A DNA stretch of 51,043 nucleotides from Myxococcota bacterium (GTDB taxonomy: Bacteria > Myxococcota > UBA4151), in NCBI GenBank assembly GCA_036338695.1, contig JAYZBQ010000012.1:1-51043 (forward strand), in the 5' to 3' direction. Under the pieces are notes generated by a model. That model saw only the letters and a list, made by a program, of their open reading frames with translations, was not told where the DNA came from and did no database searches. How positions within the stretch are numbered: position 1 is the first letter of the stretch; every line of letters starts with the position of its first letter. This document shows positions 1 to 10,192 of the stretch, one piece after another. Position numbers and translations under genes: made by a program.

Positions 1-177
1 GTCGCTGACTGGGATAACGACCACCGCCTGCACAGCGTGGTCTGTGTCGATTCGAGCTCCCCTCTCGACGCCAGGCCGAGCTGAAGCTTGCCCCCGACTC
101 GCCGTCACCCTTGTTGCTCCACGCGCTGTCCGCTCGCCCCACGGCGCTCATCAGCATCGGTGTAACCGCGGCTCGGT

Positions 178-357
178 TCAGGGCAGGGCCTTGGCCAGCT
201 TCACAAAGCTCTTCGGCATCTCAGTCATCGAATAGCCTCGACCGAGGTAGAGTTGTTGAAGCTTTGTGTTGTTCTCTTCGGTGTAGGTCGCCGCGACGGA
301 CAGGCCCTGCTCGAGCATCCACCGTTCTCCCGTCGCCAACAGGCGAATGGCCACGTG
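178..357 (-). pseudogene. C-terminal fragment of a GNAT acetyltransferase
   Basis: Translation VAIRLLATGERWMLEQGLSVAATYTEENNTKLQQLYLGRGY resembles the GNAT C-terminal N..(A)..LY..GY/F motif; the N-terminal half is missing, with DUF2200 immediately upstream. Confidence 0.5.
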
Positions 358-385
358 AATGGAGCCTCGGGAGGCACCTGTCCTC

Positions 386-736
386 CTATTCTCTGAGGAT
401 CTTGGCCATGGACTTCCCTTTGGCCAGCTCGTCAATCAGCTTATCCAGGTAACGGATCTCCCGCATCGTCGCCTCTTCGATCTCTTCCACGCGCACCCCG
501 CAGACGACCCCGGTGATCTTCGCCCTCAGGGGGTTCAGCCGGGGGGCCTGGTTGAAGAAGGTCTCGAGGTCTGTCTCCTCGTCCAGGCGCGCCTCGAGTC
601 CCCCCTGATCATACCCAGTCAGCCATTGGACGATCTCATCCACTTCCGCTTTCGTCCGGCCCTTTCGCTCGGCCTTCCCAACGTAGAGGGGATAAATCCT
701 GGCGAAGCTCATGGCGTAGATCTTGTGCTTACTCAT
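386..736 (-). CDS. DUF2200 family protein
   Basis: [42 protein letters not shown]...[15 protein letters not shown]...[15 protein letters not shown] is typical of the family; ATG at 736. Confidence 0.9.
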
Positions 737-744
737 CGAGACCT

Positions 745-826
745 CTGACTCTTTGAACAAGAGTGTGACCCGTTCCGTACGCCTCTACAATCGAGCCCTG
801 AGCCGGCACAACCGTCCCGGCGCTCC
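745..826 (-). repeat. att-like cassette boundary element (degenerate core)
   Basis: 753-791 matches 5389-5427 at 31/39 positions (ttgaac...agtgtgac.cgttccgta.gc..ct.caat); lies 8 nt upstream of the DUF2200 start. Confidence 0.7.
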
Positions 827-850
827 AGAGGTCGACCCGGCCAACCCGAT

Positions 851-2008
851 TCAGGGGTTGATGGTTGTACCGTTGAGTAGAATCCGCTCCCAGATCCGGA
901 AGCGCTCGGGGCTCAGAGCCTCCAGGTCTTCGAGGCTCCCTTCGACCAGACACTGGGCATAGATCCGTGAGAACTCGGCCATGTCTTCCCATTCGTTGTT
1001 ATTGCCGTACCCGGAGGTGCGGTTGTCGTCGCTGCGAATCGCGTGTCGCCAGATGGGGTTGAGGATGTTGTTCTGAGGTTCAAGGGTGGGAGGGTCGCCG
1101 ATCCGCGTGTACTGCTCGAACGTATGGCCCAGCTCATGAAGCAGGGTGCCCGCGCTCACGGTCTGGGTGTCGATATAGTTCATGCTGCCGTACGCCGCGG
1201 CGCCGCCACCAAAATACGACCCGTGTAGAAACTGAACGCCGTGGCCGAACTCGGTGATGATCTTCAAGCCATACCAGTACTCGACGGGGATCCGCTCCAG
1301 ACGGTCGAGGACGTCCTCAATGTGGGTGTAGGTGATGGGTGGGTCAGCGCTGATGTTCACCTCGAACGTCACCGTGTGGGACTCATAGGCGTTCGCACGG
1401 AGCTCCACGTGATACTTGGTGAGCGCGTGGTCCGCGTTGAGGTCGTAGGTGCAGGTCTCCGCGCCGCAAGCCTCCTCGCTGCAGGTGGCGCAGTCGACGT
1501 CGAAGCAGACGCACTTTTCGCTGTCGGACCAGCTCAGGATCTCCGCGGTTCCGACCTGTGGGAATCCCGCCCAGTCGAGGTCTTGCTTGGGAAGGGAGCT
1601 CGCGATCATGATCGTGCCGATCCCGGTCCAGGCGAAGTCTTCGTCTTCGGGGGTGGTGTCGGTGCCCTCGGGCGGCGGTATGGGGCCCTCTGGCACCTCA
1701 GGATCTACCCAGTCGGGGACCTCCGGCCCGGCATCGGACGCGGCATCGGAAGCGGAGTCGGAAGCGGAGTCGGAAGCGGAGTCGGAAGCGCCATCGGCCG
1801 ACGTGTCGGGCATGTCCGGCACGTCGCTCACCGAAGCGTCTACCGCGCCGCCGGCGTCTTCCAGGGCATCGTCCGCGCTCATGTCCGATGACACATCGTC
1901 CGCCGAGAAGGCGTCGGTCTCAGGTGCTGATTCGGGAGAAGGATCCGAACAGCCGAACAGCAGGAAGGCCAGAGAGATCAGATAAGGAGCCAATCGTGCA
2001 CAATTCAT
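851..2008 (-). CDS. Lipoprotein with zincin-like metallopeptidase domain
   Basis: Lipobox LFGC, acidic D/S/A linker, LLHELGH (HExxH) followed by YG..N..EDMAE; ATG at 2008 (TTG 2017 is an alternative start). Confidence 0.7.
   Translation of the reverse strand: MNCARLAPYLISLAFLLFGCSDPSPESAPETDAFSADDVSSDMSADDALEDAGGAVDASVSDVPDMPDTSADGASDSASDSASDSASDAASDAGPEVPDWVDPEVPEGPIPPPEGTDTTPEDEDFAWTGIGTIMIASSLPKQDLDWAGFPQVGTAEILSWSDSEKCVCFDVDCATCSEEACGAETCTYDLNADHALTKYHVELRANAYESHTVTFEVNISADPPITYTHIEDVLDRLERIPVEYWYGLKIITEFGHGVQFLHGSYFGGGAAAYGSMNYIDTQTVSAGTLLHELGHTFEQYTRIGDPPTLEPQNNILNPIWRHAIRSDDNRTSGYGNNNEWEDMAEFSRIYAQCLVEGSLEDLEALSPERFRIWERILLNGTTINP
1746..1790. repeat. 12-bp coding tandem repeat (tcggaagcggag, ~3.75 copies; SDSA)
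   Basis: Read directly; lies in the linker of the lipoprotein. Confidence 0.9.
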
Positions 2009-2056
2009 GGGAGCCAACCTAGCATTCAGTGCTCCTCACGCAAGGCGTCCGCCGGT

Positions 2057-2653
2057 TCATTTGCGGACAGAGGCCCCTTCAGACAGTCCCGCCTGACGGG
2101 CTTCCCAGTCAGGCCGCGTGATGGCGAGCAGCCACTCGTCAATCCAGGTTCCCTGCTTGAACACGCATCGTCGAAGGGTGCCTTCACACACGAACCCGAG
2201 CTTCTCCATCACGCGCCGAGAACCGTCATTGCCGACGAACGCCTTACCGAACACCCGCTCCGCGCCACGCTGACCAAAGGCCTCATCGACCAGGGCGCCA
2301 AGCGCTTCGGTTGCGTAGCCTTTCCCATGGGAATCAACGGCGAAAGCGAAGCCAAGATCGACCATTTGAGGGTCGCGCTCCACCGGACACAGACTGGCGC
2401 CACCAATGTATCTGCCCGATGTTCGCTCAATGACGGCGGTGTTCAGATTGAGACGGTAGTCCAATGGGTCGCACGAGGCGCTTTGCGCCCACCAATCGTG
2501 AAGCTCCTGGACTCCGGATGGACCATCCCACAGAAGGGTGTCGAAGATATTCGTGCCGATGATGGAGTGATAGAAGCCGTCGACCTGTTCAGGGGTAGGC
2601 CAGGTCAGCAGGAGACGTTCGGTCTCGATCAGAGGTGGCCGAAGTTCAGACAT
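2057..2653 (-). CDS. GNAT family N-acetyltransferase (RimJ/RimL-like)
   Basis: IETERLLL, HGKGYATEAL, GNDGSRRVMEKLGF.CEG motifs; ATG at 2653 chosen so the gene starts after the boundary core. Confidence 0.9.
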   Translation of the reverse strand: MSELRPPLIETERLLLTWPTPEQVDGFYHSIIGTNIFDTLLWDGPSGVQELHDWWAQSASCDPLDYRLNLNTAVIERTSGRYIGGASLCPVERDPQMVDLGFAFAVDSHGKGYATEALGALVDEAFGQRGAERVFGKAFVGNDGSRRVMEKLGFVCEGTLRRCVFKQGTWIDEWLLAITRPDWEARQAGLSEGASVRK

Positions 2654-2677
2654 CCTTAGACTCCTCAATGGGTCCGG

Positions 2678-2760
2678 GTCTCCTATTGAACCGTTGCTCA
2701 AGAACGACTCCAACGGCTTGTCCTTGCCTGTTGTGACGGCCGGTGTCTCCGTTTGTCACG
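2678..2760 (-). repeat. att-like cassette boundary element
   Basis: Partial core gtctcctATTGAACCG (2678-2693); CAAcggcTTG at 2711; arm TGTCTCCgttTGTCACG (2744-2760) containing the protease stop codon. Confidence 0.75.
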
Positions 2761-3697
2761 ATGTCTGCGCCAATGGCGCGATCGCCACCGCCAGGGGTTC
2801 TTTGAGGTGATGAACGTCTACGCATCTCCGATACCTGTATGGGTGATCTGGATAGAGGTCCTGGGAGCCACCGCCCCGGTAAATGCCCACCAGCTGCCCG
2901 TCGTCATTGAGCAACGCCGAACCACTTGAACCAAGCACAGCGTCCCCATCGGAGAACCACTCCCGCTGTCCTGCTCCTGCAATGACGAGGCCTGGGGAGT
3001 ATCTCAATTCGTGATTTGCTTCTTCAAACCCGAGGAACTCTCGCTCGGATTTCGACCTAAATGACCGATGTGGGTACCCCCATTGCCACACTCTTTCGTG
3101 GAGGGGTGGAGCGCTCCCGGTGATGGCGACCGGCGCGATGTGATCCGTGGGCTCTATCTTGAGGACCGCGAGGTCGAGCTCGGGGTCGACATAGCAGACT
3201 CGGACAGGACCGAGGTCATCTCTGTTGTCCGTGAGAATCCGCAGATGCGGAGCGGGCACCCCCTCGGTGTCAAAGCTTCGCGCGGGTATCCCGTGGGTCT
3301 TCTGGGGACCGGTCACGAGATGATGGTTGGTGAGCAGATAACCACTGCGGGAGACCAACGTCGCTGTGCCAAAACCCGTCAGCTCCGTTTGGTAGGGAAG
3401 CGTTCCGCCGTTGGCGAGATGAAGCACCAATTCGTGGCAAAAGCCTCTCGCCCAGTCGGGTCCTGGAATCTGGAGGTCAAGGTCGTCGATTTCCGGACGG
3501 GTCCACCCACAACGTACGGTCTCGACCCCGGAACCATCGACCTCGAAGCCACTCCACTGTCGGGCATCCTCAGGGCTGTCGAAGAGGCGATGGTGGAGCT
3601 TTCGACCCGTGTCCAGCCGGAGCACGGATGCCGTCGCTGCCAGAACCTCTGCCGGGACCGCCGAATTTTTCTGTGCTGAGAAGAAGCCAGTGCCCAT
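2756..3697 (-). CDS. Trypsin-like serine protease (S1)
   Basis: Triad motifs LLTNHHLV, LDLAVLK and GSSGSALL...GQLVGI. Confidence 0.85.
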   Translation of the reverse strand: MGTGFFSAQKNSAVPAEVLAATASVLRLDTGRKLHHRLFDSPEDARQWSGFEVDGSGVETVRCGWTRPEIDDLDLQIPGPDWARGFCHELVLHLANGGTLPYQTELTGFGTATLVSRSGYLLTNHHLVTGPQKTHGIPARSFDTEGVPAPHLRILTDNRDDLGPVRVCYVDPELDLAVLKIEPTDHIAPVAITGSAPPLHERVWQWGYPHRSFRSKSEREFLGFEEANHELRYSPGLVIAGAGQREWFSDGDAVLGSSGSALLNDDGQLVGIYRGGGSQDLYPDHPYRYRRCVDVHHLKEPLAVAIAPLAQTS

Positions 3698-3703
3698 GGG
3701 TCA

Positions 3704-3787
3704 CCTGAACATTGAGCCGAAAGGTAATCTGCTGGGTGAGGATCGGTAAGAACACGACTGTAGAAGTCACTCCCGCCCCTCGTCGCC
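3704..3787 (-). repeat. att-like cassette boundary element
   Basis: Core cctgaACATTGAGCCG (3704-3719); 44/56 identity to 6291-6346; CGTCGCC at +77 (3781). Confidence 0.85.
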
Positions 3788-3839
3788 GGACTTCCGTTGG
3801 AGAAGGAGAACCTCACGGGCGGCGACCTTAATCTATTGC

Positions 3840-3863
3840 GAAACGCTTGATATCAACAACTCG
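3840..3863. promoter_or_regulatory. Overlapping inverted pair of IHF-like sites
   Basis: gAAacgcTTGATA and TATCAAcaacTcG each differ by one base from the IHF consensus WATCAANNNNTTR. Confidence 0.35.
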
Positions 3864-4095
3864 GTGGCGAATGGGTCCATTGCCGGAGACATGGGCCTCT
3901 CGACAGGTCTCCCGGTCCATTGATTTCCGAGATCCCGAAAGAGGTGTGAGGGGCTTCTGAGGGTGTGGCGGGTAGAGAGAGCAGCGGCCTGGCGGCTCTA
4001 ACTCCCTAAAATTCGACACGATTGGGGCGCCAGCTATCCTCAATTCCAGATTTCGACCGTCTGTCGAAGTCCTGGATCGGGCTACGGAGGGAGCG

Positions 4096-4500
4096 ATGAA
4101 CACAAAGAATATACTCACGCTGATGGGTGTCGTTGTTGGACTGCAGGGCATCGGCATTTTTGCTGGAGCTGAGCCCATTACAACCGAGGCCTTCGCTGCG
4201 CTGAAGCCCGACGCTGTCGGCATCCAGATTGGAGCCATGCTACATGAGGCGATGGGCGTCATGATGCTCATGGTTGGCATCATTCTGTTGTTCGCCCGGA
4301 GTCTGGAGCCCGCCGCCGGCGCCCGGGTTCTGATGGGCGCGTCCATCGGCATCACGCTGACGGTCGGTCAGGGCTTCTACCACATGTTCACCACCGTGGT
4401 TGCGCCCCCGCTTCCTGTGCTCCTGCTGACGAGCGCGATGGCGGTGCTCGGCTTCGTGACAGCTGCAAAGGCAAAAGGCAGCGCAGAGGCCGCTGAGTAG
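4096..4500 (+). CDS. Small integral membrane protein (about 4 TM), unknown function
   Basis: 134-aa ORF with four hydrophobic segments; SD ggaggg upstream. Confidence 0.8.
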   Translation: MNTKNILTLMGVVVGLQGIGIFAGAEPITTEAFAALKPDAVGIQIGAMLHEAMGVMMLMVGIILLFARSLEPAAGARVLMGASIGITLTVGQGFYHMFTTVVAPPLPVLLLTSAMAVLGFVTAAKAKGSAEAAE

Positions 4501-4516
4501 AGGAGCGCATCGCCCA

Positions 4517-4537
4517 CGTTCCCTCTGAAGGGGAACG
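4517..4537. terminator. Hairpin between convergent genes
   Basis: cgttccc-tctgaag-gggaacg stem-loop; no U-tract. Confidence 0.35.
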
Positions 4538-4602
4538 CCGTCCGGGTCTCTGAAGCTCGACCACAGGATTATCCAGGTGTCGGCTTGCGGTCCCCCCGTT
4601 GG

Positions 4603-5370
4603 TTAACGCTTTTCCCAGGTCGAATTAACAGGCCCTCGGATAGCCAGCACTGTGACCACGCCGTCATGATTGTTCGAGTCCAGCGCCAGGTCTTCATCCA
4701 AAGTGCGGGTGGAGTAGGTCCAGTCTGTCGGAGCGGTGAAATAGGCCAGGGCGTCTTCGGATTGAAAATCAGCGCCCTCCAAATCATCGGTGTCGACATG
4801 GTGCGCAAAGAGCACGAATACATTGCCCTCGGGGTCCGTGAGCTCATGGACCCGCATACCGGTGGTAAAGACCAGGAGGGTATCCCGTTGAACCTGCACT
4901 TCAGCCACGATACCGGCGGGCCCATGTTCTACGAGCCGCCCGGAGTGGTTGATGGCGATGAGCCGGTACTCGTCACCTGGCACGTCATCCAAGAAGTTCA
5001 CGCTATCGCTATGGCCCTCAACGACAGGGTAGCTTCTCAAGGTGGAGTGTTGCTCGGAGAAGACCGCCACCTGAGCAGGCCCCTTGGTCCAGCCCTCCGG
5101 AGGGTCGATACTCGCCCACTGCTCAAAGGTGCACTCGGGGCATTCATAAGCCAATGATGCAAAGGGATTCTCGCCGATCTGCTTGATCATCTTATGGGTG
5201 AAGACCGAGCCGCTCTCCGCCGGTTCCATCGATGCATCGGCTTCAGTCGCAGGTCCTGTATCCGCTTGGGGGGCGTCTCCCGCTCCATCGCCGCTTTCGC
5301 AGCCCAGAAGAAGCGTCATCAAGAGAGTCAGGCCAAGGGCCCAGATAGGTTTCATACGTGTATCTTTCAT
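4603..5370 (-). CDS. Hypothetical lipoprotein
   Basis: Signal peptide with lipobox LLGC, acidic linker, then a globular domain; starts 10 nt after core 5381. Confidence 0.8.
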   Translation of the reverse strand: MKDTRMKPIWALGLTLLMTLLLGCESGDGAGDAPQADTGPATEADASMEPAESGSVFTHKMIKQIGENPFASLAYECPECTFEQWASIDPPEGWTKGPAQVAVFSEQHSTLRSYPVVEGHSDSVNFLDDVPGDEYRLIAINHSGRLVEHGPAGIVAEVQVQRDTLLVFTTGMRVHELTDPEGNVFVLFAHHVDTDDLEGADFQSEDALAYFTAPTDWTYSTRTLDEDLALDSNNHDGVVTVLAIRGPVNSTWEKR

Positions 5371-5380
5371 TGTGAGGTGG

Positions 5381-5465
5381 TCTATACGTTGAACCGCAGT
5401 GTGACGCGTTCCGTAAGCGCCTGCAATGACGACGCTTCTTGAACCCTGGCCCCGCGGGTGCTCCC
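5381..5465 (-). repeat. att-like cassette boundary element
   Basis: Core TCTATACGTTGAACCG reads CGG TTC AAC GTA TAG (RFNV*) on the minus strand; GTAA at +32; variant arm TGCTCCC at 5459. Confidence 0.9.
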
Positions 5466-5496
5466 GTTTTTTTCGGACGTTTCCGTTCTCGGAAGG

Positions 5497-6282
5497 CTAC
5501 GGGCCGGTTGACGATGCCGTCAGCCGCGCTCGAAACGCCTGGAGTCCAAGGCGTTTCCTCTCGAATCTCTCTTTGCTCGCCTCGTCCGTCGTGTTCGCGG
5601 CCTGCTGGGCGGCCCACTCAATGGCACGAAGAAACACCGCATCGGCTCCTTTCGGATATCGAAAGGGGCTGGGCGCATTGGCAAACACGGCTTCTTTTTC
5701 CTCATGGGAGAAAGGCTGGCGTTTGAACCCGTTCTTTTCGTACCGAGCTCGAAACTCGAGAAGATGGGAGAACCCGGTAAGGACGAGGACCTGCCCCGAC
5801 TGTGGGAGGACGGACAGCAGGTTTTCGAACATTTTGTCGTCCCGGTCATCGTTTGTTCGCCGACCCAGGTCCAGTCCCGCAGGCGTCCACCAGTCGATTC
5901 CAGCGACCGGGATGCCGACCTGTTGTGCGACAAGCGTGGCAATGGGCATTTCCACCGGTCCAGAGGCCGGGTTCTTTCGCTCCATTTCGCCGGGTTGAAC
6001 CTCGACGACCAGCAAGGTGGGTCTGAGATTCTCGATGACCGCTTGAAGGTGACCGAGACCAAATCCAGGCGTCTCTAAATGCTGTCCGTGGATTGTCCCG
6101 AGATGGTAGACCGTAGCGCCCGTGGACGCCGTGTACTTGTCAAAGGCCGCATTTCTGGTGGCCTCAGGAGCCAGCTTGTATCCGACAAAGTATCGCACCT
6201 CTGTCACGGCCATGCTGAAAACGACGAGCGCAATCAGGGCCAAGGCCACGTATTTCATCACGGTCTTTATGGGGAACCTCAT
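5497..6282 (-). CDS. Exported or membrane-anchored TraB/GumN-like protein
   Basis: N-terminal TM; LGTIH, VE, RDDKM.EN and VLVLTG.SH pattern of the TraB/GumN(TIKI)/EreA superfamily. Confidence 0.6.
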   Translation of the reverse strand: MRFPIKTVMKYVALALIALVVFSMAVTEVRYFVGYKLAPEATRNAAFDKYTASTGATVYHLGTIHGQHLETPGFGLGHLQAVIENLRPTLLVVEVQPGEMERKNPASGPVEMPIATLVAQQVGIPVAGIDWWTPAGLDLGRRTNDDRDDKMFENLLSVLPQSGQVLVLTGFSHLLEFRARYEKNGFKRQPFSHEEKEAVFANAPSPFRYPKGADAVFLRAIEWAAQQAANTTDEASKERFERKRLGLQAFRARLTASSTGP

Positions 6283-6290
6283 TGGCTCGA

Positions 6291-6374
6291 TCTAAACGTT
6301 GAACCGAAATGTAATCTGCTTGGTAACCATCGGTAAACCCACGACTTTCAAAACCGAAGTCACCGTTTGTCACC
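6291..6374 (-). repeat. att-like cassette boundary element
   Basis: Core TCTAAACGTTGAACCG with adjacent bases reads TTT CGG TTC AAC GTT TAG (FRFNV*); GTAA at +32; arm AGTCACCgttTGTCACC (6358-6374) containing the GNAT stop codon. Confidence 0.9.
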
Positions 6375-6986
6375 GCATTTCCGCTGGAACACGCTTGGCC
6401 ATGAAGAGCGTAAGATTTCGAACAGAACAACATCCTCATAGGCCCCGGTTGCGTCCTCTTGAAAACCGTTTGGTGTGATGCCTGTCATCGAGAAGCCGAT
6501 CTTTTCGTATAGTCGTCTCGCGGCTTGATTTCGGGCCAATGTGTCCAACTCGATCTTGTGTACAGCCAAGTGCTCAAATACATACGAGATGAAGCCATCA
6601 AGAGCCGCACTGGCATAGCCCTTACGCAGCGCATTTTGCTCGCAAATCTTGATGCCGATGGAGACCTTCCCATTGACCTTGTCCCAGCCTGAGTAATTCA
6701 ATTCGCCGATGGGCATCGTCGGTTTTACAGCCTCTATGATAAATCGTCGCTCCGCTCGGAATTCGTTATCGCTCCCCGTGGAGGCTGCGACGATCTTCTC
6801 CACCTCTATTTGGCTGAGGTTCAAACCATTGGGAAAACCGACGTGGGTCATGACATCGGGGTTGTTCCACCATCGATGGAGCAATGAGGTGTCGGCACTG
6901 GTGAGACCGCGAATAATGAGACCACCACTGCCCTTTGGCGCCGACGAACGAACAATTATAATAGGGTCGTATTGATCGTTACTCAT
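6360..6986 (-). CDS. GNAT family N-acetyltransferase (RimJ/RimL-like)
   Basis: LIIRGL, RKGYASAAL and NQAARRLYEKIGF motifs. Confidence 0.9.
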   Translation of the reverse strand: MSNDQYDPIIIVRSSAPKGSGGLIIRGLTSADTSLLHRWWNNPDVMTHVGFPNGLNLSQIEVEKIVAASTGSDNEFRAERRFIIEAVKPTMPIGELNYSGWDKVNGKVSIGIKICEQNALRKGYASAALDGFISYVFEHLAVHKIELDTLARNQAARRLYEKIGFSMTGITPNGFQEDATGAYEDVVLFEILRSSWPSVFQRKCGDKR

Positions 6987-7039
6987 GGGGCATAGGACCG
7001 CTTAGTCGTAGCGTGTTCGATCTGTCTCTTTTTCCCTGG

Positions 7040-7123
7040 TCTATACATTGAGCCGATAACTAAACATTGCATGTTATCAACGGTTTACAGCCATTGTCTC
7101 CATTGAACAACGTCTTTGTCGCC
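7040..7123 (-). repeat. att-like cassette boundary element
   Basis: Core TCTATACATTGAGCCG (RLNV*); exact IHF consensus TATCAAcggtTTA at 7075-7087; TGTCTCC at 7095 and TGTCGCC at +77 (7117). Confidence 0.9.
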
Positions 7124-7183
7124 AAAACCACCAGGGGAGTTGGTCATCCAGTAAGGGACCACCAACTCCCCTGGTGGTTTTGG
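7122..7183. repeat. Perfect 23-bp inverted repeat with 16-nt loop
   Basis: ccaaaaccaccaggggagttggt (7122-7144) and accaactcccctggtggttttgg (7161-7183). Confidence 0.95.
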
Positions 7184-7333
7184 GTATCTATTTGAGGAGG
7201 TCGTTGAGCACCGTATCAACGAGCTTCCGCTTCGACCGAGGTGAGAAATCCTGGTCGTGTTTGATGCCCGTCTTAGCCGGGTGTAACCTGATGGCGACGT
7301 ACTTTCGGCTGGGGACGATTGGGGTAGAGAACG

Positions 7334-8074
7334 ATGAAGAAAAGCTATTACGAAGGCCATGAGATCGCCTATCAAAACATCGAAGCAAAGGGTGGTAACG
7401 CCTGGCGGTGTACGGATTTTGATCAGCACCAAATCCGCGACTTCGTGATGGGCGCCCTCGACCGCATCGGCTTTGCTGATGGGACCGGACGACGGTGCCT
7501 CGTGATCGGTGTTGGTACGGGTCCAATGGCATGCGAGCTCGCACGCCTTGGTTTCGAGGTGCATGGCATCGACATCTCTGAAACAGCCATAAAGATGGCC
7601 GATAAGCAGGCGATTGAACGAGGATTGACCATCACGTATCGAGTCGGCGACATCTGCAAAGACGACCTTGGTACTGAACGCTACGACCTCATTTTAGACA
7701 GCCACTGCATGCATTGCATCGTCACGGACACCCATCGAGAGGCCGCGTTCACCGCCGTGCACCGTGCACTCAAGCCCAATGGCTTCATGGTCTTACATAC
7801 CATGTTGCTCGGCACCGCCCACGGGTATTACGGCGGACCTGTCGACGAGGATGGCATCCTCTGGATGAAACTGAATGAGCAAACCGGTTATGAGTATGTC
7901 GAGGCGGTGCAGCGTGAAGATGGGTGGTATGCGCCAACCCGACGACTCATCAAGGACGAAGACACCCTGAATCGCAGTCTAAATCAGTTCGGCTTTACCG
8001 TTACCTGGAGTCAAACAGTCCATGAGGCGTCAACCGGCCTAAACGACTACGAAGGCATCTGCCAGCGCGGATGA
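7334..8074 (+). CDS. Class I SAM-dependent methyltransferase
   Basis: LVIGVGTG motif I, GIDISE, GDI, YDLILDSHCMH, RALKPNG. Confidence 0.9.
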   Translation: MKKSYYEGHEIAYQNIEAKGGNAWRCTDFDQHQIRDFVMGALDRIGFADGTGRRCLVIGVGTGPMACELARLGFEVHGIDISETAIKMADKQAIERGLTITYRVGDICKDDLGTERYDLILDSHCMHCIVTDTHREAAFTAVHRALKPNGFMVLHTMLLGTAHGYYGGPVDEDGILWMKLNEQTGYEYVEAVQREDGWYAPTRRLIKDEDTLNRSLNQFGFTVTWSQTVHEASTGLNDYEGICQRG

Positions 8075-8288
8075 CAGCTCTGCCCGCAGTACTCGCGGCG
8101 TCTGATCCACCGCAGCTCGGACCCGGCGCTGAAAAGCGAAGCTTCAATACGAGGGATCAAGCTCTCGTGGCTTGATGCGTTCTATTTTTCGCTGTCCCCA
8201 GATTGTCGCCATCTTGAGGGCGATTGGGAGCCGATTTTGACGCAGGTGTTCGGCCTGATTGGTTGAAATGACGTGCTCAGGCAAGGGT

Positions 8289-8372
8289 TCTACACGTTGA
8301 GCCGTAGTTTCATCATGCTCGTAACTTGCTATGATTACTGCTTATCACAAGCCATCGCCCCCGTTTGTCACC
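8289..8372 (-). repeat. att-like cassette boundary element
   Basis: Core TCTACACGTTGAGCCG (RLNV*); GTAA at +32; TGTCACC at +77 (8366) containing the peptidase E stop codon. Confidence 0.9.
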
Positions 8373-9102
8373 GTTTGATATGAGGCGGCAGTTCGCGTGT
8401 GGGAATCGGAGTCAGCTTGGCTTTCTCCCCACCTGGGGTGACTCGATAGGCCCTCTTACCGGGCACCGAGCATACCGACTCCACCAACTGGGTTCCCCGG
8501 TAGAGAACACCACAGCTGTCGTCTACGGCAATCCCGGGCGGGAGGGTTCCGTTGGAGATGCTCTCTTCGTAGATCATCTGGCGTTCCGGGTCCCCGTCGT
8601 AGTGGGGGCAATAACTCTCCGGGAGAAAGCCCAGCCCATCACTGAGCACACGAAGAGGGCGCCCCCATGAGTCGGTGATGGAGCCGCTGAACCAGCACAG
8701 TGCACCTGCGCTGAGGCCACAGAGAATGGTTCCTTGTTCCCAGGCCTGTCGAAGGGTTTTGTCAATGCCGTGGGCCCGCCACACGAGCAGCATCTGAAAG
8801 GAGTTTCCTCCGCCCACATAGATCACGTCCTGGTCGAGCAGGTGCTCGTGGGGCTCGGGCTGGTTGTAGCGCGTCAGGCTCAAGTGGGAGTGTTCCGTCC
8901 CCAAGGTCCCCATGGCGGCGTGAAAGCGCTCGATGTACCCCTCGGCATCGCCGCTCGCAGTGGGAAGAAAGCAGACCTTGGGTCGCTCTTTGCCAGTCAG
9001 GGCTAGAATGTATTGATCGAGGGCCAGGTTGTCCGGCTCCATCGAGAACCCACCACCGCCCATGGCGAAGATGGTTTGATGCTCTGGAGGCGTCTCAGAC
9101 AT
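8368..9102 (-). CDS. pepE: Peptidase E (S51 family, class I glutamine amidotransferase-like fold)
   Basis: FLPTASGD, IYVGGGN, GLSAGA nucleophile motif, CPHYD; start ATG overlaps the end of ychF. Confidence 0.9.
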   Translation of the reverse strand: MSETPPEHQTIFAMGGGGFSMEPDNLALDQYILALTGKERPKVCFLPTASGDAEGYIERFHAAMGTLGTEHSHLSLTRYNQPEPHEHLLDQDVIYVGGGNSFQMLLVWRAHGIDKTLRQAWEQGTILCGLSAGALCWFSGSITDSWGRPLRVLSDGLGFLPESYCPHYDGDPERQMIYEESISNGTLPPGIAVDDSCGVLYRGTQLVESVCSVPGKRAYRVTPGGEKAKLTPIPTRELPPHIKR

Positions 9103-9109
9103 TGAACCG
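9094..9109 (-). repeat. ychF 3' end, putative attB/attL core
   Basis: ctcagACATTGAACCG reads CGG TTC AAT GTC TGA; prototype of the repeated cores. Confidence 0.85.
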
Positions 9110-10192
9110 GAAGTGCATCACGTCGCCGTCAGCGACGGTGTATTCCTTGCCCTCAATGCGGAGCTTGCCGACTTCACGGCAGCCCTTCTCGCCGCCATGG
9201 GCGACGAAGTCGTCGAAAGCCATGACCTCGGCTTTGATAAAGCCCTTTTCAAAGTCGGTGTGGATGACGCCTGCGGCTTGCGGGGCGCTGGCGCCTGCGG
9301 GGATGGTCCAGGCGCGCACCTCCTTTTCACCGGCGGTGAAGTAGGTCTGTAAGCCGAGCAGGGCGTAGCCCGTCCGGATCAGCCGGCTGAGACCAGGCTC
9401 TTCGATGCCCGCCGCTTCCAAGAACTCGGCGCGCTCGCCCTCGTCGTCGATCTCGGTGAGCTGCGCCTCGAACTCAGCGCTGATCGTCACGACCGGGGCG
9501 CCCTCCTTGTCGGCCAGCGCACGGACGCGCTCGACCAGGTCGTTACCGGTTGCCGCCTCTTCTTCGCTCACGTTGCATACGTACATGACCTTCTTGGCGG
9601 TCAGCAGATGCATCTCGCGCAAGGCTTCGTCTCGAGCGGGGTCGGCGGGCAGTGAGCGGTAGGTCTGCCCGTCATCGAGCGCCGCTTTGACCGCCTTAAA
9701 GTGCACCAGCGCCGCCTTTTTCTTGGGGTCGCCCGCTTTCGCTTCGCGCTCACCGCGCTCGACACGTTTAGCCATCGACTCCATGTCTTTGAGCAAGAGC
9801 TCGGTATCGATGATGTCAATGTCTCTTAAGGGGTCAACGGAGCCCGAGACGTGGTGAATGTCTTCGCTCTCAAAGCAGCGGACCACGTGGGCGATGACGT
9901 CGCACTCGCGGATGTTGGCGAGGAACTGGTTGCCCAAGCCTTCGCCTTTGCTGGCGCCCTCGACCAAGCCCGCGATGTCGACGAAGGTCATCTGCGTGGC
10001 GAGCGTGCGCTGCGGGTTGACCAGCTCGGTCAGCTTAGCGAGCCGTTGGTCCGGGACGGGCACCTGCCCGACGTTAGGCTCGATGGTGCAGAACGGAAAG
10101 TTGGCGCTCTCGGCGCGCGCGTTCCCCAGCGCGTTGAAGAGCGTCGATTTGCCGACGTTGGGGAGCCCAACGATGCCGCATGAGAATCCCAT
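9095..10192 (-). CDS. ychF: Redox-regulated ribosome-binding ATPase YchF
   Basis: GIVGLPNVGKST, NFPFCTIEPN, DIAGLV, TGS domain ending DGDVMHFRFNV. Confidence 0.98.
   Translation of the reverse strand: MGFSCGIVGLPNVGKSTLFNALGNARAESANFPFCTIEPNVGQVPVPDQRLAKLTELVNPQRTLATQMTFVDIAGLVEGASKGEGLGNQFLANIRECDVIAHVVRCFESEDIHHVSGSVDPLRDIDIIDTELLLKDMESMAKRVERGEREAKAGDPKKKAALVHFKAVKAALDDGQTYRSLPADPARDEALREMHLLTAKKVMYVCNVSEEEAATGNDLVERVRALADKEGAPVVTISAEFEAQLTEIDDEGERAEFLEAAGIEEPGLSRLIRTGYALLGLQTYFTAGEKEVRAWTIPAGASAPQAAGVIHTDFEKGFIKAEVMAFDDFVAHGGEKGCREVGKLRIEGKEYTVADGDVMHFRFNV

Follow-up and report, generated by a model that had tools for sequence, protein, structure and literature searches.

Integrons are the one well-understood route for the stacking and exchange of single genes at a fixed position in bacteria, and a cluster of their attC elements without an integrase nearby is known as a CALIN (cluster of attC sites lacking integron-integrases). 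Other described systems include SCC and SCCmec (staphylococcal cassette chromosome), composite islands at the 3′ end of rlmH (orfX) that are moved by Ccr serine recombinases and span tens of kilobases (kb). At the 3′ ends of genes, integrative elements have reportedly accreted in tandem to give the CIME/ICESt1-type elements (CIME, cis-mobilizable element) at fda and the ssrA islands of Dehalococcoides, and Xer-dependent elements comprise IMEX (integrative mobile elements exploiting Xer) at dif and the pdif modules of Acinetobacter plasmids. Here, we describe a tandem gene array behind the housekeeping gene ychF in a marine Myxococcota bacterium, contained in a 51,043-nucleotide (nt) stretch of DNA (assembly GCA_036338695.1, contig JAYZBQ010000012.1), the whole of which is referred to as the window. 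Its units are likely to be gene cassettes of an integron-like array that is docked behind ychF at its 3′ end, with the boundary elements between them as attachment sites. As to ychF itself, one paper gives it as an integration site of pipolins with large serine recombinases in Actinomycetota (PMC11551731), and another places a pneumococcal satellite prophage upstream of the gene (PMC10383233).

The array is anchored by the final codons of ychF. The minus strand carries the genes of this region, and on it the core of the boundaries reads CGG-YTC-AAY-GTN plus a stop codon, i.e., Arg-Phe/Leu-Asn-Val-stop in the translation of the window cores. The first core, at 9099, is the true end of ychF (Arg-Phe-Asn-Val-stop), and the array therefore begins at the stop codon of this gene and extends to position 1, the contig end. 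A direct repeat of the 3′ end of the target gene is present at every junction, as in SCC-like elements. On the plus strand, the 11-mer ACRTTGARCCG occurs exactly six times in the window, on a single strand and between 3709 and 9109, and a further copy with two mismatches lies at 2683; the longer core TYAAYGTNTAGA has four occurrences in the 3.36-megabase assembly, all within this array. No further array was found in the same assembly with the three family models of the boundary elements (nhmmer), which match contig C12 only. The four cores nearest to ychF are exact and keep the stop codon, and the distal cores are decayed: the one at 3709 reads CAG in the stop position, the one at 2683 carries the two mismatches, and the one at 753 is degenerate. 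An earlier note, made from the letters of this stretch, had taken the boundaries for sites of recombination by a tyrosine recombinase. Their resemblance to recombination sites, with landmarks and spacing fixed and the sequence between them divergent, is borne out here, but the origin of the core as a copy of the last codons of ychF had been overlooked.

The boundary elements fall mainly into the families A, B, and C, which are related because the family models match each other's members. The features of the array, from ychF to the contig end, are as follows.

9095 to 10192, minus strand: ychF, the anchor gene, 365 amino acids, Pfam YchF-GTPase_C and MMR_HSR1, tail translated.
9095 to 9115, minus strand: docking site at the end of ychF, attB- or attI-like; plus-strand core ACATTGAACCG at 9099 to 9109, stop codon at 9095 to 9097.
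8305 to 9101, minus strand: cassette 1, an S51 peptidase; open reading frame (ORF) listed as 8368 to 9102, true start probably near 9060.
8289 to 8390, minus strand: boundary element of type C; core at 8294 to 8304; nhmmer type C model, E 1e-20.
7056 to 8296, minus strand: cassette 2; methyltransferase at 7334 to 8074 on the opposite (plus) strand; long perfect hairpin at 7126 to 7183.
7040 to 7123, minus strand: boundary element of a fourth, single-copy type; core at 7045 to 7055, left box TGTCGCC at 7117.
6360 to 6986, minus strand: cassette 3, a GNAT acetyltransferase; its stop codon lies inside the left box of the next element.
6291 to 6395, minus strand: boundary element of type A; core at 6296 to 6306, GTAA at 6323, direct pair at 6358 to 6374; nhmmer E 2e-30.
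5497 to 6282, minus strand: cassette 4, an ORF of 261 amino acids without a Pfam match.
5381 to 5487, minus strand: boundary element of type B; core at 5386 to 5396, GTAA at 5413; nhmmer E 2e-28.
3830 to 5380, minus strand: cassette 5; ORFs of 255 amino acids (4603 to 5370, minus) and 134 amino acids (4096 to 4500, plus), neither with a Pfam match.
3704 to 3807, minus strand: boundary element, decayed type A; core at 3709 to 3719, CAG as the stop-position codon; nhmmer E 3e-13.
2756 to 3697, minus strand: cassette 6, a trypsin-like peptidase.
2678 to 2763, minus strand: boundary element, type C-like; core at 2683 to 2693 with two mismatches, left-box pair at 2744 to 2760; nhmmer E 5e-5.
851 to 2713, minus strand: cassette 7, with two ORFs, a GNAT listed at 2057 to 2713 and an ORF of 388 amino acids at 851 to 2017 with a weak M60-like match.
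745 to 850, minus strand: boundary element, decayed type B; degenerate core near 753 to 760; nhmmer E 7e-4.
1 to 744, minus strand: cassette 8, DUF2200 at 386 to 760, and the start of an older decayed array; contig end.

Between cores, the cassettes hold one or two ORFs, encoding an S51 peptidase, a methyltransferase, two GNATs, a trypsin-like peptidase, DUF2200, and several unknowns; in cassette 7, no element separates the two ORFs. The junction between ychF and the S51 gene is bridged by a contig of sequencing run X3 over 9005 to 9934. Every letter string quoted in the earlier note was found at its quoted place, including the GTAA-type motif (GTAA at 8321, 6323, and 5413, gtac at 777, and gtga at 3736), the heptamer (TGTCACC at 8366 and 6368, TGTCGCC at 7117, CGTCGCC at 3781, and TGTCACG at 2754), both direct pairs with a 10-base-pair (bp) period (6358 to 6374 and 2744 to 2760), TATCAAcggtTTA at 7075, and ACATT-tcggttc-AACGT at the 6291 site. 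The seven window sites are thus real, yet they are not independent samples: in profile searches, 6296 pairs with 3709 (type A), 5386 with 745 (type B), and 8294 with 2683 (C and C-like), and 7045 stands alone, the A, B, and C models giving no nhmmer match on the 7040 to 7123 element. The left box TGTCACC at 8366 contains the stop codon of the S51 gene; a stop codon in the left box was rejected as a general rule, a long upstream ORF ending there in only 14 of 84 elements. Two repeats inside cassettes were also observed. A perfect inverted repeat of ~58 nt at 7126 to 7183 lies inside cassette 2 beside the 7045 element, and a 12-nt unit, ggaagcggagtc, is present in about four tandem copies at 1741 to 1796 inside the 388-amino-acid ORF as a short coding repeat of a secreted-looking protein.

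The anatomy of the elements was examined in a larger set of sites. Metagenome contigs were scanned for a left box and a core with a gap of 50 to 70 nt allowed between them (21 lengths), which gave 106 matches on 102 stretches. The gap is exactly 57 nt in 84 of the 106 matches, and the remaining 22 are spread across 12 other gap lengths. A scan of species genomes (596 billion bases) gave 27 matches, eight of them with the 57-nt gap, and six of these eight are in bins labelled Myxococcota, Myxococcales, Bradymonadia, Polyangiaceae, or 'Deltaproteobacteria'. The remaining 19 genome matches are distributed over 15 other gap lengths and, except for one further Myxococcota bin, over unrelated taxa, which amounts to about one chance match per gap length. 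With further cores on the matched loci included, 117 distinct junctions were collected, comprising 58 of type A, 14 of type B, 21 of type C, 11 unclassified, and 13 ychF ends that have the body of ychF on the left side; the set without the ychF ends is referred to as the 104 internal junctions or elements. Arrays headed by full-length ychF were present at five metagenome loci and four genome loci.

Most type A and C copies were selected by a pattern containing both boxes, and the evidence independent of this selection is therefore limited to the gap length, TTAC, the second GGKGA, and type B. TTAC, which corresponds to the GTAA at +32 from the core start and was not part of the search pattern, lies at −21 to −18 from the core in 53 of 58 type A, 13 of 14 type B, and 11 of 21 type C copies, and seven further type C copies carry TTAG at the same position. 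A second GGKGA follows the first by 10 bp in all 58 type A copies and in 19 of the 21 type C copies; the two stand at −69 and −59 in 57 of 58 and 17 of 21 copies, respectively. Type B copies were collected via the core alone, and the left box is found at −70 in 12 of the 14. The left arm of the core, predominantly ACATT in type A (35/58), ACACT in type B (11/14), AAACT in type C (14/21), and CACTT in the ychF ends (12/13), faces AAYGT across 7 bp. In this larger set, the +32 and +77 motifs proposed in the earlier note are enriched, which favors its proposal because the 57-nt gap, TTAC, the second GGKGA, and the left box of type B are conserved. Likewise, the GGKGA pair, about one helical turn apart and at a fixed distance from the core, would agree with the arm-type direct repeats that it had suggested, and type A shows a 5-bp inverted repeat around 7 bp (ACATT versus AATGT) at the core; the right arm is also fixed by coding. 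A binding site for integration host factor (IHF) as a general feature is not supported, the consensus, WATCAANNNNTTR, being found in only one of the 104 elements, the 7040 to 7123 element of the window (at 7075), and twice in the whole 51-kb window. As far as the letters can tell, the anatomy of the sites would fit a lambda-like picture.

The cassettes resemble those of integrons in several respects. From core to core, the units measure 277 to 2686 bp, with a median of 799 bp (n = 50), 39 of 51 ORFs are co-oriented with ychF, and a promoter scan, which is a weak test, gave three promoter-like sites versus 2.9 expected, without enrichment; the array thus consists of small, mostly promoterless, co-oriented cassettes, as in integrons. 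The cargo is composed of diverse accessory genes, among which GNATs are the commonest (~18 of 230 scanned ORFs, at metagenome loci between L023 and L115, in addition to the two in the window at 2057 to 2713 and 6360 to 6986). Restriction-modification and PD-(D/E)XK nuclease genes were also observed as cassettes (L048, L056, and L087). A classical integron or CALIN, in which the elements would be attC sites that fold single-stranded and are recombined by an IntI integrase, would account for the size, co-orientation, and cargo of the cassettes, and the plus-strand core GTTGARC fits GTTRRRY. However, the elements do not show the folding that this explanation demands. Single-strand folding of the seven window elements as DNA on both strands gave z values of −1.6 to +0.6, i.e., no signal. 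An alifold consensus of 77 copies, calculated with DNA and RNA parameters on both strands, gave −0.4 and 0.0 kcal/mol, with shuffled columns at about zero, and the mean single-sequence z values of the same copies were −0.21 and +0.14. In Rfam, only sub-threshold matches were obtained, on the hairpin of cassette 2 (7122 to 7186) and at 5532 to 5661, and none on the elements. Having neither a fold nor an Rfam match, the elements are therefore neither attC hairpins nor structured RNAs. Moreover, with respect to the genes, it is the wrong end of the element that carries the GTTRRRY-like word, and the sole tyrosine recombinase of the window assembly (its only PF00589 match) reaches 129 bits on the integron-integrase model of NCBIfam, of which the cut-off is 265, and 328 bits as XerC. 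Collectively, a classical integron or CALIN is extremely improbable.

Evidence for exchange comes from cassette starts that recur in different contexts. Clustering on the 36 nt behind each junction yielded 21 clusters of identical or similar cassette starts. In clusters 1, 4, 6, and 15, the same start stands behind ychF in one contig, whereas in another contig an element of type A, B, or C precedes it, and in clusters 3, 7, 9, 11, 16, 20, and 21, the start stands behind elements of differing families. Three cassettes of the window recur elsewhere, namely the S51 cassette, the start of which is found behind a type A element in L030 (cluster 6), the 261-amino-acid ORF (L048 and L058, cluster 10), and the GNAT cassette 3 (L094 and L108, cluster 20). 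The similarity always sets in inside or directly after the core. The similarity of left neighbors stops before CGG, and the AAY and GTN variants travel with the right-hand cassette: the AAY variant is uniform in 17 of the 21 clusters, and in 9 of the 11 clusters with left neighbors of differing type. It could therefore be deduced that the exchange point lies in CGGTTCAA, a position that would fit the 7-bp overlap of the proposed site. At the 104 internal junctions, the codon after Val is a stop in 100 cases (TAG 55, TGA 34, and TAA 11) and TGG in one; all four Val codons occur, and no conservation extends past the stop codon. Right of the exchange point, the sequence is thus conserved as a coding stretch and not in a DNA-binding pattern, which is the expectation if each cassette is selected to complete ychF on landing directly behind it. 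Selection for recombinase binding, as put forward in the earlier note, is consistent with the fixed spacing, but it does not explain the right side, where conservation follows the genetic code. In addition, contigs of runs X1 and X2, from other seawater, depart from the window sequence exactly at the cores 5392, 6292, and 6296 and continue with other sequence, which is weak support because assembled contigs can break at repeats.

Two irregular junctions were observed among the loci. At L153 (4150 to 4230), the end of ychF is attached to a left flank of the element type that is shorter by one base than the flank native to the gene. It is followed by a 13-nt tandem duplication of the core that restores the frame of ...Arg-Phe-Asn-Val-stop, as if a mis-recombination at the docking site had been repaired. 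At L159 (60 to 260), two cores lie 43 nt apart with neither an element nor a gene between them, which makes this either an 'empty' unit or what a deletion has left behind.

Read along the gene strand, a cassette starts with AAY-GTN-stop, the replacement codons for Asn, Val, and stop of ychF, and continues with a short leader, usually one gene, and the double-stranded ~105-bp element ending in CGGTTCAA. Ahead of the core, the landmarks of the element are the GGKGA pair (at ~69 and ~59 nt, 10 bp apart) and TTAC (at 21 nt), and next to the core, the short arm ACAYT faces AAYGT across 7 bp. We propose that conservative site-specific strand exchange could take place inside CGGTTCAA between a free cassette, which would probably be circular, and the end of ychF, where the same letters are present. 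Insertion would thereby place the cassette right behind ychF, its own Asn-Val-stop completing the gene, and the ~105-bp element might serve as the protein-binding arm of the cassette site. Each newcomer would push the older cassettes outward, where their sites would decay.

Exchange could also be imagined without a dedicated recombinase, the elements being conserved intergenic repeats with a protein-binding, insulating, or regulatory role and the swaps resulting from homologous recombination after DNA uptake. No dedicated recombinase has been found, and an identity of 75–88% over ~93 nt within a family would be enough for some RecA-dependent exchange. However, a stretch of only ~11–18 bp is common to the ychF junction and the elements, and one and the same cassette is nevertheless found behind ychF and behind members of three families exactly there. 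The Asn-Val-stop on every cassette, needed only for landing directly behind ychF, is also difficult to reconcile with such an origin, and neither an Rfam match nor a structure speaks for a role of this kind. We regard this explanation as quite improbable.

Another possibility is that the units are remnants of larger integrative elements (islands, pipolin-like, or SCC-like) that were successively integrated at ychF by their own integrase and then shrank, leaving fossil, functionless attachment sites. This could explain the decay of the distal cores of the window, and it would be in line with the published use of ychF by pipolins with large serine recombinases in Actinomycetota (PMC11551731). 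It also draws on one locus, L174 (1 to 11550, the same DNA as L170), in which a 72-nt tail of ychF without the gene body heads two cassettes, a GNAT and a DUF4386 gene. Upstream of this tail are a resolvase (3663 to 4340), a GIY-YIG protein, and, at the contig start, a 5′-truncated tyrosine recombinase, and the same bin carries full-length ychF on another contig. L174 may be the end of a larger ychF-targeting element. Against remnants in general, more than 100 units share the element length, mostly hold one gene, and have a median size of 799 bp, and the same small cassette is found behind different neighbors. Between hosts of which the ychF DNA is 64–72% identical, the elements are 75–88% identical over ~93 nt; by this comparison, they are better conserved than ychF, a sign of constraint that speaks against fossils. 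In 401 genomes of Myxococcota, nothing related to the tyrosine recombinase of L174 was found at E ≤ 1e-10, and this protein was therewith rejected as the enzyme of the system. Shrunken remnants are, in sum, an unlikely explanation.

Several observations weigh against an array of integron-like attachment sites at ychF. The right half of the site is unconserved past the stop codon, which is odd for a classical two-armed double-stranded core, and the window core at 8294 and its counterpart in the related genome G001 (cluster 21) differ at both variable core positions despite a shared downstream sequence. No excised circle or empty site was seen in the data of runs X1 to X5, which consisted of assembled contigs only, where circles and rare forms cannot show and parts of the window without cover carry no information. 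The search beside the arrays revealed no recombinase, with a single IS66 transposase among the 230 ORFs of 83 related loci; the sole locus with candidates is L174, where the resolvase and the truncated tyrosine recombinase lie 6–9 kb away from the array. The window assembly, at 93.6% completeness, encodes a single tyrosine recombinase, which is XerC-like, and lacks serine recombinases, and its relatives G004 and G005 show only the XerC/XerD pair. All genomes are bins, and mobile DNA may therefore be missing from them.

The co-occurring arm-binding tyrosine integrase expected by the earlier note was accordingly absent from what was searched: the one tyrosine recombinase of the window assembly is XerC-like, and the relatives add XerD. 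Neither PF00239 nor PF07508 has a match in the window assembly (G000). PF00239 is matched in one of the six genomes of the order (G003) and in two of five further array-bearing bins, in both of which the match is a small resolvase; another of these five bins, G403, has two tyrosine recombinases and no resolvase. Only Xer-like or phage-like matches, and no IntI, were obtained in the other five genomes of the order, which are incomplete assemblies. The extra integrases of G001 and G003 were rejected because no core is nearby, as was the second Xer-type gene of the relatives (XerD), which has a conserved housekeeping neighborhood away from the arrays. XerC and XerD are the only site-specific recombinases in several array-bearing bins. 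A dif-like site is present in the window assembly at C58:79838, with a counterpart at G004:C240:2077; neither resembles the core, and action of Xer at the core was set aside, the dif-like site being elsewhere and dissimilar. The dif-like site is canonical-looking and lies near a contig end, and the window assembly has XerC without XerD, both of which are present in the relatives. A phage or plasmid attP was also sought in two scans of viral collections, of which the 27 and 1 matches were all unrelated AT-rich genes or chance, none with an element. A lambda-type tyrosine integrase is a possible enzyme of these sites. We tentatively entertain an arm-binding tyrosine recombinase supplied in trans, with a serine recombinase as a more doubtful candidate and XerC/XerD as an unlikely one; the remaining probability falls to some other enzyme.

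The distribution of the system was assessed among relatives. The GTDB order of the host consists of six genomes, all of them metagenome bins, and a BLAST search with types A and B revealed clear copies only in G001 and G004 among these six. One contig of G001 starts exactly at a core, directly behind which sits the DUF2200 gene as it does in the window, and continues with a type A element, 88% identical to the window element at 6291 to 6395, a second core, and more cassettes. Behind ychF, G004 carries SelO, an ORF of 290 amino acids, and, further on, GNAT and SnoaL genes, with a type A element (73% identical) after SelO and a type B-like element after the GNAT gene. Thus, both genomes have the same element families as the window and other genes in their cassettes. 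Assemblies tend to end here: the contig of G002 stops 40 nt after ychF and that of G005 ~400 nt after it, and breaks were observed at G002:C197, G005:C72, and G241:C35 and C154, either exactly on the final codons of ychF or within a few hundred bases of its end. Such breaks are expected, given a repeated, variable array behind the gene. Outside the order, the ychF tail is not repeated within 10 kb downstream in seven other families of the phylum. The strict pattern Phe-Arg-Phe-Asn-Val-stop, which is blind to type B and C cores, has zero or one match in most of 401 genomes (G195 being counted only here); 11 other genomes have two or three matches, and in all nine of which the places are listed (all but G060 and G065), these are on different contigs.

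On balance, we incline toward a gene-capture system of marine Myxococcota that is not yet described. It would work like an integron, with the last codons of ychF as the entry, with non-folding elements of fixed length (~105 bp) in at least three related families, and with cassettes that bring Asn-Val-stop; its enzyme would not be IntI but either a repurposed host enzyme or an unrecognized recombinase acting in trans. No description of cassette arrays at ychF was found in the literature, of which subscription journals were thinly covered. If this reading is true, gene capture of the integron type evolved more than once, and a large pool of accessory genes in marine bacteria would be opened to cassette-targeted sequencing. 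The recombinase, having a long, asymmetric double-stranded site, would be a potential tool, and the three codons carried by every cassette would form an unusually clean natural record of the insertion point.

Compared with known systems, the ychF array lacks a defining feature of each of integrons, SCC-like elements, and Xer-dependent modules. Its cassettes are, like those of integrons and CALINs, small, mostly one-gene, and co-oriented, each ending in its own recombination element, and newcomers appear to enter at one fixed site heading the array. Conservation ends a few bases past the exchange point, and the cargo is rich in GNATs and unknown genes. In integrons, element families are common within a lineage, as in the Vibrio cholerae repeats, and the same holds for the ychF elements. 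Unlike in integrons, the entry is the coding end of a housekeeping gene and not an attI beside intI, the elements are of fixed length and non-folding without an IntI, and ychF depends on each cassette for two codons and a stop. SCC and SCCmec share with the array the insertion into the last codons of a conserved gene, the bounding of units by a direct repeat of the gene end, and tandem stacking, including units without their own recombinase; the ychF units, however, are only 0.3–2.7 kb in size and end in a conserved 105-bp element, and a serine recombinase is absent from the window assembly and present in one of the six genomes of the order. Pipolins have the same target gene, but they are large, self-encoding, and from another phylum, whereas the ychF array has single-gene cassettes and neither piPolB nor a large serine recombinase. 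The tandem accretions at fda and ssrA are similar in having direct repeats of the target end at every junction, including those of integrase-less units, yet those units are kb to tens of kb long and derive from integrase-bearing elements, and the ychF units are uniform and miniature with a terminal element of their own. Xer-dependent elements are likewise small recombinase-less modules moved by host recombinases, but the ychF core is dissimilar to the dif-like site of the assembly, and the cores are direct, not alternating, in orientation. Collectively, the closest system by logic is the integron, and by target, the elements that insert at gene ends, such as SCC at rlmH and the islands at ssrA and fda.

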